41,713 nt of DNA from a virus. Taxonomy: Duplodnaviria > Heunggongvirae > Uroviricota > Caudoviricetes. The stretch covers positions 1 through 41,713 of the IMG/VR virus record IMGVR_UViG_2778261064_000003; one strand, 5' to 3'. The notes below the pieces were generated by a model. The model searched no databases. It saw only the letters and a list, made by a program, of their open reading frames with translations, and was not told where the DNA came from. Positions 4,434-22,170 of the stretch are shown one piece after another; positions within the stretch are counted from its first letter, which is position 1, and the number at the start of each line of letters is the position of its first letter. Made by a program: the position numbers and the translations under genes.

Positions 4434-5707
4434 CAGTCGGTAATCTCCACAGGTTGCGTCGGCAGAATGAATGACGGATGGCGCAGGCGGTTACGCTGCA
4501 CGATTTCATCCCGTCGGCTTGTATCCCCATGCTCGCGCCATGCCAGCAATGCGGCAGATGTGGTTGTGGTCAGCGTCACCTGCCGGGTTTCCGGCAGACG
4601 GGCGGCACGCTCGCGGGCATCCGTAATCACGGCCTGCCGTAAATCGCGCAGCGTTCGCCACAATGCCCGCTGGTTATTTTCCACCGCTGCCACCGCCTGC
4701 TCATGCAGTTCAGCCGCCAGCGCGTCACCGGCAGATAATGCCGCATCACTGGTATCGAACGTCATCGAGGCCACGGCATTTGCCTGTCCCAGCAGGGTTT
4801 CCAGCACAACCACCTGGCGGAAGTCGTCAATGTTCTTCTGCAGGCTGTCAGATACCGGCTGATAATCCGGTGACAGCCCGATAGCAAAGCCAGGTTCGCC
4901 GTCTGCCACGCTGCCTGGCTTCACGGTGATATCTTCCGGCAGTGCGCCGGTGGCAACCTGTCGGGCGCGTTCTCCGGCCCACTGGTTGCGTAATGTCGTG
5001 TAAACCGCCAGTGCTTCGGGTGGTTCCGTCACCAGAACAACCACGCCGTCGATGAACGAGGACAACTCACTGACCAGACGTCCCGGCGTGGCAATAATGG
5101 TTCCGGCCATCTCCTTAAAATGGTTCAGCCTGTCCATCCACTGATTCAGTGCTGCCGGTAACGTGGGCAGGTTAGCCACAAGGTTTTCCATATCGGCCAG
5201 AAAGCTGTCGGCCATATCACCCAGCCCGTCAGGTACACTGAACCAGTCGCCAGCATCAATGGCCGCTTTTACCGCATCAATGCCTGTCAGCACCTCCTGC
5301 TGCGTGTTATCCGCCGCAGACGGGAACAGGCGCTCGCCTGCCTCAAACACTTCAAAGGTGACATATGCAATGCCATCTTCCTCCGTGCTGAGGCGATGGG
5401 TGACCTTGCCAACCTGTACGGTCTGTATCCCGAACCACGGGTGGATAAGCTCGCCGGGGCCGGGGGTATTGAGCGCGTCTAAAAGGGCGTTTAAATCATC
5501 CTGGAAGTTTTTACCTGGCAGCTTTGCGTTAATCTGCTGTTGCCCCGGAACGGCCCCGTTATCATCCGTCCAGGCGGTTTCGCGCCGGGGATACGCGCGG
5601 GGAATGGCACGACGGCCACCGGTGCCTTCCGTATCCACCAGAAAGAAGGGGACGCCGCGAAACGAGGCATCGCGCAGCCCGTCCCATTTGCCTTTGCTCG
5701 TTGTCAT
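4433..5707 (-). CDS. DNA circularization protein N-like tail protein (Mu gp43-like)
   Basis: 424-aa ORF immediately downstream of the tape measure gene, as in Mu. Confidence 0.6.
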   Translation of the reverse strand: MTTSKGKWDGLRDASFRGVPFFLVDTEGTGGRRAIPRAYPRRETAWTDDNGAVPGQQQINAKLPGKNFQDDLNALLDALNTPGPGELIHPWFGIQTVQVGKVTHRLSTEEDGIAYVTFEVFEAGERLFPSAADNTQQEVLTGIDAVKAAIDAGDWFSVPDGLGDMADSFLADMENLVANLPTLPAALNQWMDRLNHFKEMAGTIIATPGRLVSELSSFIDGVVVLVTEPPEALAVYTTLRNQWAGERARQVATGALPEDITVKPGSVADGEPGFAIGLSPDYQPVSDSLQKNIDDFRQVVVLETLLGQANAVASMTFDTSDAALSAGDALAAELHEQAVAAVENNQRALWRTLRDLRQAVITDARERAARLPETRQVTLTTTTSAALLAWREHGDTSRRDEIVQRNRLRHPSFILPTQPVEITD

Positions 5708-7572
5708 TACCCTTGCTCCACGCTGGTGACGCCAGCCTGCGCACTGAGTCTGACGCCGGGTTGATCCACTCTGACACTTTTCACGCGGGCATCACCTTCC
5801 ACCACCACACGGATTTCCCCCTGCAATTGCTGCGAAAGGAAAGGATAATTCTGTGTGGGTTGCATACCTGCCCACGGTCGCGGGTCAGCAATGTTCTTGT
5901 CACCCAGCGAGTTGAACCAGTCCGTTACCTTACGCCAGACGGACTCGAGCGCTTTCTGGTTGTCCTGACCTTGTTGCGCGAACTCACGTTCCCACTGGCT
6001 GGCGCTGGCATCACCGGCAACGGATTTAGTGAGACTGTCAACCTCACCCGGCAGGGCGTATTGTGTGGTCAGAAAATCGTAAAACTCCAGAGCACCGGCA
6101 ATGATGCCAGCGCCTTTACCTGCCTTTCCTCCACGGTTACCCGGCCCCCGAGGATTGCGGGGATTGCGCGATGAATCCGGTGTATCCGGCAGACCGCCGG
6201 TATTACCATTCATCCCGCCACTGCCCATATTGACCACATAAACCGGCATCACGCCGGAGCCGAAAACATCCGTAATGCCGCCGGGTATTCCTTTGCCTTT
6301 CCCTTTGGGATTCATGATGTCGTGGAGGGTTTTACCTAACTGGTACGTTTTTCTGATGGCGATAATGCCGCCCACAGCAATCGCCATATATTTACCGACC
6401 TGCAACCAGTTCTGGACGGTGTTCTGGTCCACGCTGTTGATGGCATCAGCCAGGTCCTGAACGGGTTTTGCCAGTTGATGGTGGGAGAATTTTTTCCAGC
6501 TGGTTTCCAGCGCCTGCATGGCCGACGTAAAATCCTGTGCAGCATATGCGGCATCCTTCATGATGCCTTTTCCATCACCTGTAACCTTCATATAACGTTG
6601 CAGGTTTTCTGCGCCTTTGCCTGAGGTTACCGCTTTGATTAACATTGTTGCATCATCAAGAAACCCGGCTTCATCCAGCCGTTGGGATTGTATTTCTGTA
6701 CCTTTACTTCCGGAGCGTGCGGCAATCTCCTGAAGAAGAAGGGGCAATGAACGCATATTTCCTTCGTTATCGAATACGTTAATGCCATTGTGTTTAAGAA
6801 CCTTTACGGTTCCTGTTTTTTGCAAATCTTTTATAAGGTTTTCTACTACTGTAGCCGCAGTATCCCGATCTCCGGTTGCATCAATCGCAGATTCAAGCAC
6901 AACCCCAACATCCCTGACACCCTGCACACCACGTCCGCCCGCAGCGGAATACAGCGACATCGCACGGGTTGCTTTTTCTGCGATGTCTTTCAGTTCATAG
7001 GCACCTTCTTTTCCCAGCAGGTTCAGGGTATCCATTGCCTTTAAGGCATCGTTTTCATCCTTAATCCCGAACTTCGTAAACTGAGAAAACAGCGAGCCGA
7101 TGGCTTCCCCTGAACTTCCGGAAGCGGCGATGGATGCCGCCATCATCTCCTTGTTTTTGAAACCAAAATTAATCTCACCCGTCACGGTGCCAACTTTTTC
7201 CACCGCGCTTATCAGTTCACTGTCATCAACCTTAAATTTGATGGCGGCGTCCTGAATACCATTCAGCATCTGTGCCATTTCTTCGCGCGTCTTTTCTGCG
7301 GAAATACCAATACGGGTCATCCGGCGATCCACCTGCGCAAACTCACGCATCATGGCGCTACCCGCAAAACCGGCAATCATCGCCGTGTAGCGGTTACCCA
7401 GCACATCGAGGCCACGTGTGGCAGATTCCGTAGTGGCTTTAACAAGGCTCATTGCCTTCTGATGATTACGCGCGAACTGCGACATATTTGCGCCGTACTG
7501 CCGGGCTTTGGCGGTCAGGTTCCCGGCAAGGTTGATCATGATTTCCGTACTGAGACGGTTACCTGTTGCCAT
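5707..7572 (-). CDS. Tail tape measure protein
   Basis: 621-aa ORF, Gly-rich and helical, located between tail chaperone and baseplate genes. Confidence 0.8.
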   Translation of the reverse strand: MATGNRLSTEIMINLAGNLTAKARQYGANMSQFARNHQKAMSLVKATTESATRGLDVLGNRYTAMIAGFAGSAMMREFAQVDRRMTRIGISAEKTREEMAQMLNGIQDAAIKFKVDDSELISAVEKVGTVTGEINFGFKNKEMMAASIAASGSSGEAIGSLFSQFTKFGIKDENDALKAMDTLNLLGKEGAYELKDIAEKATRAMSLYSAAGGRGVQGVRDVGVVLESAIDATGDRDTAATVVENLIKDLQKTGTVKVLKHNGINVFDNEGNMRSLPLLLQEIAARSGSKGTEIQSQRLDEAGFLDDATMLIKAVTSGKGAENLQRYMKVTGDGKGIMKDAAYAAQDFTSAMQALETSWKKFSHHQLAKPVQDLADAINSVDQNTVQNWLQVGKYMAIAVGGIIAIRKTYQLGKTLHDIMNPKGKGKGIPGGITDVFGSGVMPVYVVNMGSGGMNGNTGGLPDTPDSSRNPRNPRGPGNRGGKAGKGAGIIAGALEFYDFLTTQYALPGEVDSLTKSVAGDASASQWEREFAQQGQDNQKALESVWRKVTDWFNSLGDKNIADPRPWAGMQPTQNYPFLSQQLQGEIRVVVEGDARVKSVRVDQPGVRLSAQAGVTSVEQG

Positions 7573-7768
7573 GCTGTTTCTCCAGTTGCTTTATCAGGCG
7601 GAACAACTGCCGCAGGGGCAGTTGTTCCAGGTACTGAACGCTGAATCTCTGGGACAGGTTAACCAGCAGGTTCATCAGTGCCGCTGCCAGCGGCATCAGT
7701 TCGCCCCCGCGTTGCCACCTCCTCAAGCATTTCATCCAGCGCCGCCGCTTTCGTGCTGATAAGCTCAA
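7559..7768 (-). other. Alternative-frame ORF overlapping the 3' end of the chaperone gene and ending 14 nt inside the tape measure gene; candidate frameshift extension
   Basis: Open frame of 69 codons with helical, Leu-rich sequence (LMNLLVNLSQRF...) in the +1/-2 frame relative to the chaperone. It fills the 86-bp gap between chaperone stop and tape measure start. Confidence 0.35.
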
Positions 7769-8054
7769 GGTCTGCCGGGTGGAGCATTCGCAGCTGTTTC
7801 ATGTCCAGCGGACCGGGGATATTGCCGATTGACGCAACCTGACGGCGCATCATTTCCAGTCCCATCAGCACTTCAGAACAGTAGGCCACCGCCTTTCCGT
7901 TCCCGCCCATGACGACGCGTTCTGCGGCCAGTTGTGCATCAATCACGTCACTGGCGGTCAGTTCGCGCAGCTTCACGGTTTTATGCAGGGTTTCATCTGC
8001 CGTGCCTTTGCCGGTCAGAAGCCCGTGTTTCAGTTCAAATGTCATTTCAGCCAT
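7659..8054 (-). CDS. Tail assembly chaperone (Mu gp41-like)
   Basis: 131-aa ORF between tail tube and tape measure genes, the conserved chaperone position. Confidence 0.6.
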   Translation of the reverse strand: MAEMTFELKHGLLTGKGTADETLHKTVKLRELTASDVIDAQLAAERVVMGGNGKAVAYCSEVLMGLEMMRRQVASIGNIPGPLDMKQLRMLHPADLELISTKAAALDEMLEEVATRGRTDAAGSGTDEPAG

Positions 8055-12042: not shown

Positions 12043-12945
12043 TTATGCCGGGGTGGTGATGTACGGGCTGTCCACGATGTCCACATCCTTGTACCAGATG
12101 TTGGAATCGCCGCCGTTAACCAGCATGGCGTCAATGATGCGCTTCGCGTCCGCGCGGTTTCTCGGCCCCACCACAAGGGTGGTCGGGCGGATGCCCAGCG
12201 GTTCACCGTTGGTGGTCTTCATACCCAGCAGCAGATTGCTGGCCTTCTCGTAGTTCTCCGCTGTCAGTGCCGCACGGGAACCGACGGCGGTCTGCCAGAA
12301 GCCGAAGCCCGCATTGCAGCGACCGTCCACCCCGTAAAGGAACTCGTTATTCTTGAAGGTGTGCTCGCTGTTCAGATCATCCAGGGCTTCAAACTTAAAG
12401 GCGCGTCGCGTCTGCCAGATGATGGGTTTCAGTACCTGAGAATCATCAATCAGGAACCACGGTTCCCCCTGGTCTGATGCCGGGGTGCCGACAACGTTGC
12501 TGTATGTGCCGTCGCCCAGCGGGTGGTCTTCATCAAAGAAGTTCTGACCGTCAAAACACAGGGTGTTAAACCCGGCACACAGCAGGGGGTAACACAGCTT
12601 GTCCGGGAACTCCGACGTCTGGCGGCCATAGCGTTCAGCGATAATGCTGTACTGACCAATCTGTTCGTCTTCAATGTGTTCGCGTTTAACGCGGATCGAA
12701 CTTTCCCAGGTTTTGTTCGCAAGGGTGTAACCATAACCGTCCAGCGTTGCCATCTGACGGGCGCTGACCCATTCCTTAATCTCCGGTAAATCTTTCATCC
12801 AGCCGTAGGTATTGGAGGCGGACGAACTCGGGATTTCAGAGGCGATGCGCTGCCACTGTGGGGTGACACCACTCAGCCCACGGGTATAAGCGGCGCTCAG
12901 ACAGGTGGTCAGCGCGTGAAGGACTTCGGAAGTGACTGCTCCCAT
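12043..12945 (-). CDS. Major head subunit (Mu T-like)
   Basis: 300-aa ORF directly downstream of protease/scaffold gene, as in Mu. Confidence 0.75.
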   Translation of the reverse strand: MGAVTSEVLHALTTCLSAAYTRGLSGVTPQWQRIASEIPSSSASNTYGWMKDLPEIKEWVSARQMATLDGYGYTLANKTWESSIRVKREHIEDEQIGQYSIIAERYGRQTSEFPDKLCYPLLCAGFNTLCFDGQNFFDEDHPLGDGTYSNVVGTPASDQGEPWFLIDDSQVLKPIIWQTRRAFKFEALDDLNSEHTFKNNEFLYGVDGRCNAGFGFWQTAVGSRAALTAENYEKASNLLLGMKTTNGEPLGIRPTTLVVGPRNRADAKRIIDAMLVNGGDSNIWYKDVDIVDSPYITTPA

Positions 12946-13907
12946 CAGTTATTCTCCTGTTTAGGTTTAGCGGCGAGGAACTCTTCCCCGGTAATACCCA
13001 TGCTGCGGCACATCGCCAGTTCGGCGTCGGTCAGTGTCTGCGCGGGTTTATCCTTGCCCTGGCTGGGCTTGTCGTTGTTCACCAGCGGCTGTGCACCTCT
13101 GGTGTACTCCGCAAACTGTTTGCGGCCTTCTTCCGTACGGCAGGTGGCAAGGAACATGTCACGGTTTGCCGGGGCCACTTTTCCGGCCTCAATGGCCGCA
13201 TCCACAAGCGCTTCTGCTTCCTGCTCTGCCAGTTGCTGAAGGCGTTTTTCTGCGGTTTCGGCACGGTTCAGTGCCAGATTGTGGGTTTCCACCGGCACAA
13301 ACTTCGTCAGATCAGGTGTCTGTGCGCGGTTCAGCGCCACCTGTTCGTTCTCCTGAAGTTGTTTAATGGCGGCCACGGTATCGTCCACCGTGGCAGATTC
13401 AGCCAGCCCAAGCAGGCCGGTGATTTGCACAGGTACTGTCATCGGGTTTTTCTCCGTATTCAGTGCAGGAAAATCCAGGTTAGGTTTGTTGGTCAGCCCG
13501 ACGCTGGACAGGCGCGTCACCACACCGTCTGCGTCAAAGAAAAACGCCGGGCTGTAATAGCGGTAGCGGCGCTCGCTCAGCATCCAGCGGGCGGACTCGC
13601 TCCAGACAACACGCCCTTCAATGGTGCCGCTGTCCGTCACGCGCAGTTCTTCCACCCAGCCATACGCCGGGGCTTCATCACCGCGTTGCCCTTTAATTTC
13701 GGTGGCGTGTTCAATGTCCACCGGAATTTTGATGTCGGACGAACGGGTGACCACCTCATGCGGATTGTGGTTAATCCACGTCCGGCCATCGCGCCCGGTG
13801 AACTCACCCGCAGGGACGAGTTCGAGCCATTCCGGCAGTTGAGCCGGTGTCAGCTCAGGGATGGGTTCTGGCAGGGAAAAACACAGCGCCAGCAGTTCCG
13901 GTTGCAT
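12945..13907 (-). CDS. Head maturation protease/scaffold (Mu I-like)
   Basis: 320-aa ORF between F-like and major head genes; coiled-coil rich C-terminal half. Confidence 0.7.
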   Translation of the reverse strand: MQPELLALCFSLPEPIPELTPAQLPEWLELVPAGEFTGRDGRTWINHNPHEVVTRSSDIKIPVDIEHATEIKGQRGDEAPAYGWVEELRVTDSGTIEGRVVWSESARWMLSERRYRYYSPAFFFDADGVVTRLSSVGLTNKPNLDFPALNTEKNPMTVPVQITGLLGLAESATVDDTVAAIKQLQENEQVALNRAQTPDLTKFVPVETHNLALNRAETAEKRLQQLAEQEAEALVDAAIEAGKVAPANRDMFLATCRTEEGRKQFAEYTRGAQPLVNNDKPSQGKDKPAQTLTDAELAMCRSMGITGEEFLAAKPKQENN

Positions 13908-13956
13908 GTCAGTCTCCGTCGTTTGGGATTACCGCCGGTCAGTATGCGGAAGGCAG

Positions 13957-13980
13957 AAAAAAAGCCGGATTTACCGGCTT
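13957..13980 (-). terminator. Rho-independent terminator-like hairpin (minus-strand AAGCCGG-TAAAT-CCGGCTT followed by T7)
   Basis: Seen directly; located downstream of F-like gene and upstream of protease gene; identical copy at 21691..21714. Confidence 0.6.
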
Positions 13981-14120
13981 CACTGAAAACGGGGAAATAC
14001 CCCCTTCAAAACCCCTTCAAAAACGCCACAGCATCTTCAAAAACGTCAGAATGCACATTCACGCCATCAGAATAAAAAACGCGTTTCTGATGCGTTTCAG
14101 GGGGATTTACGGCGGGAGGG

Positions 14121-21039: not shown

Positions 21040-21636
21040 TCACCCCCGCGTGGCGGACATGATGCCCAGAGGGGTATCGATGATTTCCAGACAGGCGTCG
21101 GTCAGCTTTTCCATGCGGTTAAACCAGCCGTTCAGGTATTTGCCCTGGGCGGGTTTGGATTTGATGATGTCGGCATAAAAGCGGGAACGACGGACAATGC
21201 AGCGGGCCAGCAGCCAGTCAGGGGTGGACTGGCTCACGGCCTTACGGGTACGGGGGCCGATGATGCTGTCAGCATCCACATCAGCGGCTTCCTGCAAAAT
21301 CCTGATGGCTTTTTTAACGCCATGCTGAACCGCCGCATCGAACACAAACATCGCCACGCCATCAGGCCACTGGTCACATCCGGCAGGCAGCCAGTAATCG
21401 CGCCAGTAAATCTGCGCAACCTGTTCGCGGGTTAAATCCCTGATGCGGGTATCCGGTTTGCCGTCGCCGTTGACATCGGTTTGGCCGTCAATCACACCGT
21501 CGCGGCGGTCAGAAATGCCGTATTTGGTTTCGCCGCCACGGTCAGTGGGGTCATTGACATAGACGCCTTCGATATCGGGACGCAGAATGAAATTCAGCGC
21601 ATGTTCAAAAGCCGGGGAGAATTTTTGATTTACCAT
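21040..21636 (-). CDS. Peptidoglycan hydrolase (GH108-like N-terminal domain with peptidoglycan-binding C-terminal region)
   Basis: 198 aa; I recognise the sequence pattern as the GH108 / PG-binding lysin family, and it sits at the lys position downstream of the Mor/C-like activator. Confidence 0.65.
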   Translation of the reverse strand: MVNQKFSPAFEHALNFILRPDIEGVYVNDPTDRGGETKYGISDRRDGVIDGQTDVNGDGKPDTRIRDLTREQVAQIYWRDYWLPAGCDQWPDGVAMFVFDAAVQHGVKKAIRILQEAADVDADSIIGPRTRKAVSQSTPDWLLARCIVRRSRFYADIIKSKPAQGKYLNGWFNRMEKLTDACLEIIDTPLGIMSATRG

Positions 21637-21640
21637 AAAA

Positions 21641-21681
21641 GCACCATGAAGCAGATTTAAACGTGGTCTGCTTCATGGTGC
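21641..21681. promoter_or_regulatory. 15-bp perfect inverted repeat GCACCATGAAGCAGA-N11-TCTGCTTCATGGTGC immediately upstream of the lysin start
   Basis: Seen directly; ends 5 nt before the lysin start codon. Confidence 0.5.
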
Positions 21682-21690
21682 CGGAGGCAT

Positions 21691-21714
21691 AAAAAAAGCC
21701 GGATTTACCGGCTT
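21691..21714 (-). terminator. Rho-independent terminator-like hairpin, second copy of the element at 13957..13980
   Basis: Seen directly: identical 24-nt sequence AAAAAAAGCCGGATTTACCGGCTT (plus strand), with about 35 nt near-identical including flanks. Confidence 0.6.
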
Positions 21715-21720
21715 CATTGA

Positions 21721-22170
21721 TTAAGGGCGTCGTGGCGGACGACGAACGGGGTGAGGCAGGTTCGGGGAGTGGTAAAACAAATCCGGCTGGTATTTATTAC
21801 GCTCCAGACGCCGCATCCGTTTGATGGCCTTGTAGACGGTTTTATACGTCACTCCGTAACGCTGAACCAGTTCAGGAATATTATGGCCGTTAAAATCACG
21901 CCAGATACGCATATCCCGGACAAGATTCTCCAGAATATTCCCCCTCGGAACATAAACCTGCATCCCGCCGATATGGCGACAAATCGCCACAACCAGCTCA
22001 AGGGAATGGGCAGGGTCTGCGCCAATCCGGGCCAGCTCTTTACGCAGCAGTGCGTTCAGTTCAGAAAGTAACGCCGGATAAGCGGTGTTTTCCTGGTAAT
22101 CATGAAGGTATTCCAGAACGCTGTCGTCCCGAAGGTCTTCGAATAAATCCTGCTCTTTCATCTGTTTCAT
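21721..22170 (-). CDS. Mor/C-family transcriptional activator
   Basis: 149-aa ORF just upstream of the lysin gene; size and C-terminal basic helix-turn-helix-like region as in Mu Mor/C. Confidence 0.6.
   Translation of the reverse strand: MKQMKEQDLFEDLRDDSVLEYLHDYQENTAYPALLSELNALLRKELARIGADPAHSLELVVAICRHIGGMQVYVPRGNILENLVRDMRIWRDFNGHNIPELVQRYGVTYKTVYKAIKRMRRLERNKYQPDLFYHSPNLPHPVRRPPRRP

Follow-up and report, generated by a model that had tools for sequence, protein, structure and literature searches.

In bacteriophage T4, the long early transcripts of the genes e (lysozyme), soc, 49 and I-TevI contain a helix that sequesters the Shine-Dalgarno sequence (SD) and/or the AUG (PMC3014915). In control of the gene e type, the late promoter is situated in the DNA for the 5′ strand of this helix, and the late transcripts, which lack that strand, are translated (PMC3014915). 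The target of gene e control is an endolysin and its rationale is the avoidance of premature lysis (PMC3014915), which provides an experimental precedent for a phage lysin. The promoter Pm of phage Mu has a -10 but no -35; Mor binds to it as a dimer, at a 16-bp element centred at -43.5 in which a G/C-rich hexamer is flanked by two 5-bp inverted repeats (PMC4287176, PMC4390567).

The stretch of viral DNA analysed here (41,713 nucleotides, hereafter the window) is a Mu-like prophage, with Pfam matches to the Mu transposase, GemA, Mor, Mu F and the Mu-like I protease. Its lysin gene is preceded by a perfect inverted repeat. We consider it fairly probable that this dyad acts as an RNA hairpin through which the promoter of origin determines whether lysin is translated, read-through RNA being masked and late RNA being open. 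Premature endolysin synthesis is costly to a phage, and in this Mu-like group the lysis genes directly follow the early operon with one terminator between them. A promoter within a hairpin that masks the ribosome-binding site (RBS) would be a simple, protein-free way to tie translation to the promoter of origin.

The lysin leader and its inverted repeat

The Mor-family transcription activator gene (21721..22170, − strand, 149 aa; PF08765 Mor, E = 3.6e-30) is the last gene of the early operon and lies directly after the GemA homologue, the same place as in Mu. Its product was 63% identical to Mu Mor. A tblastn search of the window with this protein did not detect a second Mor/C-family gene. The protein possesses an N-terminal QDLF and a C-terminal QPDLF, which fit both clamp-binding motif consensuses of the Mor/MuC family (PMC12867686). 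Mu Mor has the N-terminal putative motif (DLF) only, and MuC has two (substitutions L5A and L133A; PMC12867686); in having both motifs the window protein resembles MuC. It also has a proline/arginine-rich C-terminal tail, which is missing in the shorter homologues of its relatives.

On the − strand, the mor-like gene is followed by a hairpin with a run of seven T, nine bases, the dyad, TTTT and the lysin ATG, in this order. The endolysin gene (21040..21636, − strand, ATG at 21636..21634) encodes GH108 (PF05838, E = 1e-23) and PG_binding_3 (PF09374, E = 2e-16) domains. It is the first gene past the promoter cassette, and its RefSeq relatives are annotated as glycoside hydrolase family 108.

The dyad is a perfect inverted repeat, GCACCATGAAGCAGA / TCTGCTTCATGGTGC (21681..21667 and 21655..21641, − strand), complementary at 15/15 positions and with an 11-nt spacer. 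Its 5′ arm, GCACCAUGAAGCAGA (21667..21681, − strand), spans the putative -10 hexamer, the discriminator and the putative +1. The A/U-rich loop of 11 nt, CCACGUUUAAA (21656..21666, − strand), would be the 5′ end of the late transcript, and the 3′ arm, UCUGCUUCAUGGUGC (21641..21655, − strand), holds the lysin Shine-Dalgarno sequence GGUG (21645..21642). The four T residues at 21640..21637 are the sole spacer between the dyad and the lysin ATG (21636). An earlier note, made from the sequence, had reported a perfect 15-bp dyad with an 11-nt spacer at 21641..21681, and our repeat search returned the same coordinates with 100% complementarity. The note also placed the dyad 5 nt before the ATG; the adjacency is correct, but 5 is the difference between the coordinates, and four bases (TTTT) actually intervene.

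The window contains two perfect inverted repeats whose arms are 15 bp or longer and whose spacers are 3-40, whereas 200 dinucleotide shuffles gave 0.01 on average. The one other than the lysin dyad (15 bp, 39140-39154 / 39182-39196, spacer 27) is found at the early-operon end of the prophage, past the repressor gene (29607..30242); it may represent a host terminator. The 15-bp half-site of the lysin dyad had no second copy in the window, and permitting up to 3 mismatches yielded matches at chance level only. A search of the whole window against the Rfam families produced no match at the gathering threshold, with weak sub-threshold matches near the dyad. A candidate for a terminator or a regulatory hairpin is GGAACAACTGCC/GGCAGTTGTTCC (7600-7611 / 7617-7628), a perfect inverted repeat of 12 bp whose loop is 5 nt long; it is located in the − strand gene block below the head genes, where it separates the − strand ORFs 7659..8054 and 5707..7572.

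Homology to the Mu Pm promoter

Positions in the cassette are given as an index in which the A of AGCCGG is index 0. The numbering of Mu Pm was fixed from the coordinates of the primers MLK7 (+10 to −9) and JM40 (−87 to −47) (PMC4390567). From these primers, +1 of Mu is genome position 9224, or index 46, the Mor element is AGTAA-AGCCGG-TTAAT and the bases at −13..−8 are TATCCT. The window possesses a putative Mor-type binding element, AATGA-AGCCGG-TAAAT (21703..21718, − strand), which corresponds to -51..-36 of Mu Pm. At the positions of the Mu TATCCT it has CACCAT (index 33-38; 21675..21680, − strand), a candidate -10 hexamer. CACCAT matches TATAAT at 3/6 positions, including the two best-conserved ones, and is a weak −10. 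By homology to Mu Pm, the activator-dependent lysin transcript would start at 21667 on the − strand (index 46), to within 2 nt. The experimentally numbered Pm of Mu, together with conservation among relatives, thus points to a -10 and a +1 within the 5′ arm of the dyad.

An intrinsic-terminator-like hairpin with an 8-bp GC-rich stem, a 5-nt loop and 7 T was identified by a terminator scan and by RNA folds (21691..21715, − strand). A near-identical hairpin and T-run follow mor in Mu, in the mor-E18 intergenic region, and this Mu sequence has been cloned as part of Pm (primer 'Mu Pm nt9163'). With the Mu numbering set by the primers of PMC4390567, the Mor element overlaps the left arm and loop of this hairpin, as well as the bases just upstream of it. 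The DNA of the ‘terminator’ after the mor-like gene would therefore double as activator site and promoter spacer, the binding of Mor being deduced from sequence. A terminator at 21691..21714 had been called in the earlier note, which is reasonable, but a role as terminator only does not hold if the same DNA is the putative activator site and spacer. If confirmed, this leads to an annotation rule: where a ‘terminator’ follows mor, the next promoter has its activator site there.

We scanned viral contigs for the hairpin and T-run motif and obtained 119 stretches, which together with annotated relatives gave 64 unique leaders, each reaching from the motif to the start codon. The left half-site C-A-R-T-R-A, which was outside the search pattern, was kept in the 64 unique loci, with two invariant positions. 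Index 34 was A in 63/64 unique loci, index 38 was T in 62/64 and index 39 was G in 60/64; past index 40 conservation among them was gone. No sigma-70 -35/-10 pair was found in the region, as expected, since the promoter would be activator-dependent. The locus thus has the 16-bp element, the -10 without a -35 and the phage-encoded Mor/C-family activator of a Mu Pm-type promoter, with a position relative to +1 that is transferred from Mu.

Several other assignments were considered for this region. Equating the Mor dyad with the terminator hairpin, and the A/T-rich loop TTTAAAT with the -10, was ruled out by the primer coordinates of PMC4390567, which place the -10 at index 33-38. A likeness to Mu Plys (the C-lys intergenic region) was also rejected, as the window region is homologous to Pm instead. 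A small leader ORF opening at the ATG within the 5′ arm (21676) was also considered; this ATG lacks an SD and is not in frame with lysin, and the conservation of T38-G39 is better ascribed to a promoter constraint.

Exactly two copies of the motif AGCCGGTAAATCCGGCTTTTTT are present in the window, one ahead of the lysin gene and one at 13979..13958, ahead of the I-protease gene. The second cassette (13932..13991, − strand; exact motif match, nhmmer E = 1e-17) comprises activator element, hairpin, T-run and a -10, CATACT. Behind it lies the Mu-like I protease/scaffold gene (13907..12945, − strand; Pfam Mu-like_Pro, E = 2e-44). A check for a similar dyad at the other late operons had been proposed; what recurs at 13979..13958 is the shared ‘terminator’ motif with its -10 region, and not the dyad. 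This arrangement suggests direct control of two or more late operons by the single Mor-like activator. The second cassette is the equivalent of the PI promoter of Mu. A palindromic terminator-like sequence (the ATAAAAAACGCGTTTCTGAT region, 14072-14091) was present about 90 nt upstream of it, between the Mu F-like and I genes. No third cassette was detected in the window by nhmmer, the only further hit being a weak partial match at 452-465. This match to the motif core (CCGGTTAATCCGGC, 452-466, + strand, nhmmer E = 0.006) has neither T-run nor -10 and is probably coincidental.

Predicted folding and variation among relatives

Folded alone as RNA, the dyad hairpin had a free energy of −27.4 kcal/mol (z = −8.5), and none of 200 shuffles was equally stable. 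An RNA starting at 21667, from which the 5′ arm is missing, reached −8.1 kcal/mol (z = +0.9), no better than shuffles. In the fold of the read-through RNA the stem covers the lysin SD, and weak outer pairs extend to the start codon. The cost of opening the RBS was computed over −14..+3 around the start codon, from SD to AUG. For the leader identical to that of the window (L050) it was 22.1 kcal/mol in the read-through RNA compared with 4.7 in the +1 RNA. Medians over 63 unique leaders were 13.1 kcal/mol for read-through RNA, 6.7 for RNA from index 46 and 7.3 when index 23-45 was shuffled, and the difference in opening cost across the 63 leaders was significant (Wilcoxon p about 1e-11). Sequestration of the SD and AUG in upstream-derived transcripts is, in this sense, a prediction of computed folding.

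In the mechanism that we propose, the early transcript would end at the intrinsic terminator after the mor-like gene. Transcripts passing the terminator would hold both arms, and the 15-bp stem would bury the lysin GGUG and leave lysin untranslated. The stem and the UUUU behind it may offer a second chance of termination on this read-through RNA. Accumulated Mor-like activator would then bind 21718..21703 and recruit sigma-70 RNA polymerase to CACCAT (21680..21675). Late transcription would start inside the hairpin, at the base that ends the 5′ arm (about 21667). The late RNA, unable to form the hairpin, would have an open A/U-rich leader with a free SD, and lysin would be made. Masking would be limited to transcripts from upstream because the putative -10 and +1 sit inside the 5′ arm. 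We infer where transcription starts in the window phage, that read-through exists and that translation is affected. Since a strong terminator (8-bp GC-rich stem, 7 U) stands before the hairpin, few transcripts may read through, and the benefit of suppressing them may be small. Occlusion of the lysin RBS by an RNA structure was one of two roles suggested in the earlier note; it agrees with the computed folds, with the change that masking would affect upstream-derived transcripts only.

The I-gene cassette of the window showed no significant differential RBS masking by RNA folding, so the hairpin is not obligatory in the cassette. Differential masking does occur at some I-type cassettes of other phages, for example in L047.

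Across 63 unique relatives, Mu included, the sequence of the hairpin varied while its geometry persisted. All leaders were picked for sharing the motif; clustering their variable region at 70% identity gave 17 families with unrelated stems, which are not fully independent of each other. The Mor and lysin proteins of these families are about 58-81% identical to those of the window. In all 17 families the partners of the SD/AUG bases were almost exclusively at index 46 or below; the commonest end of the 5′ arm was index 46 (median 47). The apical 5′ arm reached index 49-53 in 28/63 leaders, and here a short residual stem could stay in the late RNA. Leaders from Klebsiella and Yersinia phages and from Mu differed in sequence, and each had a predicted hairpin with its 3′ arm over the SD and/or the AUG. 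In Mu, CCUGUGAUGA at −10..−1 of Pm is predicted to pair with UCAUCAUGGG over the E18 start codon.

Alignment with MAFFT and RNAalifold of 48 leaders recovered no consensus structure, as the stems are in different registers, and shuffle and swap tests were therefore used. In the swap test, the 5′ part of every family was joined to the 3′ part of each family. In 17/17 families, RBS masking by the cognate 5′ part exceeded the mean of the non-cognate parts (p = 1.5e-5), with a rank of 1-3 of 17 for the cognate part in every family. The evidence for covariation consists of these shuffle and swap tests, taken without phylogeny-aware correction. A structure that is kept and covaries while its sequence does not points to a function at the RNA level and not to a protein-binding site.

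The perfect 15/15 pairing was allele-specific, the identical sequence being present in L050 only among the fetched viral loci. The other relatives in family F1 have a right arm that is one base longer (TTCACAGGTGC or TTCACTGGTGC), which results in a bulge or small internal loop. The bases aligned with the lysin SD were AGGTGC in relatives and AGGAGGG in the distant loci L006 and L009.

Some relatives differed in gene content. Both L006 (a prophage of E. coli TUM9757) and L009 (Yersinia phage vB_YpM_5) possess, in addition to Mor, a second, C-like gene of the Mor/C family. A GH108 lysin homologue is first after Pm in L006, with a second glycoside hydrolase behind the C-like gene. In L009 the GH108 homologue is also first, and the fetched stretch ends within the C-like gene. 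In both, GCCCUC just past the T-run pairs with the GAGGGC of the SD of the GH108 gene. Extra ORFs were found between mor and the cassette in the E. coli prophages L002-L005 (about 1938-2435, locus coordinates), encoding hypothetical proteins of 160-166 aa, and in Klebsiella phage Kp4866-3 (L008, 1361-1693), with a hydrophobic product of 110 aa. The cassette remains joined to lysin in these relatives. In H39-H41, DNA homology to the window starts exactly at the mor end. The junction between mor and cassette looks like a moron insertion hotspot.

Other roles of the dyad have to be weighed against these results. It could be a back-up terminator, in which dyad and UUUU act in tandem with the upstream hairpin to stop early transcription before the lysis genes and RBS masking is incidental. 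The stem of 15-16 bp with UUUUAUGG directly after it agrees with such a role, and family F7 also has GUUUUAUG behind its stem. However, with a U-tract of only 4 U and a loop of 11 nt, the dyad was not called by the terminator scan. Furthermore, in most lysin-type families the stem is not followed by a U-run (AGGCATG, AAATG, CAATG, CGTAGTG), while all keep the SD in the 3′ arm. We regard this as unlikely to be the explanation of the hairpin. Termination is compatible with the logic of a promoter inside the hairpin and could coexist with RBS masking, and an auxiliary role of this kind, in the window's family and not in general, is plausible.

A long, regular and very stable stem (-27.4 kcal/mol) at an operon boundary could also be an RNase III site or a hairpin stabilising the mRNA of the early operon, unrelated to lysin translation. 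We give this little chance: it leaves unexplained why the SD is always in the 3′ arm and why the 5′ arm ends at the putative +1 in unrelated families, and many of the family stems are short and bulged.

The other role suggested in the earlier note was that of a DNA site for an activator of the Mor/C type. As an operator, the dyad would bind a dimeric regulator, either a Mor/C-like activator or a repressor of the late promoter. Dyad elements are bound by Mor/C proteins, and perfect symmetry across -10..+27 would suit a repressor. Against this, the half-site is unique in the window and the 15-bp arms are far longer than typical half-sites. The dyad centre is a few bases downstream of the putative +1 and not at -43.5, and the element common to both late promoters is the upstream motif. 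Moreover, the sequence is unrelated in the 17 families, which share an identical activator motif and have Mor proteins 60-80% identical, and it is the complementarity that is kept. We thus abandoned the activator site and consider an operator of either kind very improbable. Finally, we give almost no credence to a repeat without a selected function, for instance a small palindromic duplication left by local sequence history: the perfect form is indeed a rare allele with imperfect close relatives, but chance would yield 0.01 such repeats, and equivalent hairpins of other sequences, with co-varying arms, occupy the same place in 17/17 families.

RBS masking by the hairpin in upstream-derived RNA is therefore the reading that we retain. 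We tentatively extend it, at somewhat less than an even chance, to the Mor-dependent promoters of Mu-like phages as a group, Mu Pm included. These may be composite insulator cassettes of about 90 bp, combining terminator, activator site, promoter and anti-RBS strand. In such a cassette the -10/discriminator DNA would also be the anti-Shine-Dalgarno strand, so that promoter and RBS would co-evolve, and the downstream genes would be silenced both transcriptionally and translationally until the activator fires. If true, the timing of gene expression in a paradigm phage would have a layer of control that has gone unrecognised, and the strategy of T4 gene e would have arisen with another type of promoter. 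A cassette as compact as this could double as a synthetic insulator part.

Comparison with Mu, IS10 and T4

The window shares with Mu Pm the hairpin and T-run motif, the 16-bp element, the -10 positions, the spacing, the place after mor and an activator of the Mor family encoded upstream. In Mu, a middle operon (E18-C) is transcribed from Pm, and Plys is turned on by C, which is a second activator. The window, by comparison, has a single Mor/C gene, and its Pm-like cassette is found directly before lysin and, as a second copy, before the I gene. Given these positions, the cassette probably acts as a late promoter. We found no description of an RBS-masking hairpin at Mu Pm or in Mu-like phages in the literature searched, which was of limited coverage. 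If confirmed, the hairpin would add a layer at the well-studied Mu Pm and would explain why the leaders are fast-evolving yet self-complementary.

A related principle is known from IS10/Tn10 as ‘fold-back inhibition’. Read-through transcripts from outside carry the complement of the RBS upstream of it, transcription from the promoter of the element itself begins past this complement, and translation of the transposase is limited in this way. Unlike the window, IS10/Tn10 is an insertion sequence and the controlled gene is not a phage lysis gene, nor is an activator-dependent promoter involved.

T4 differs from the window in its promoters, which are gp55-dependent late promoters (TATAAATA) of a virulent phage, whereas the window has a putative sigma-70, Mor-activated promoter without a -35 in a temperate transposable phage. 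Unlike in T4, a strong intrinsic terminator precedes the hairpin in the window, and the -10 hexamer itself (G-CAC) provides the anti-SD bases. If confirmed, the T4 lysozyme paradigm would be extended to temperate transposable phages with sigma-70 activator-dependent promoters. From the computed folds, we suggest that the lysin leader of the window is under control of the T4 gene e type, placed in a Mor-dependent cassette and apparently common to Mu Pm.
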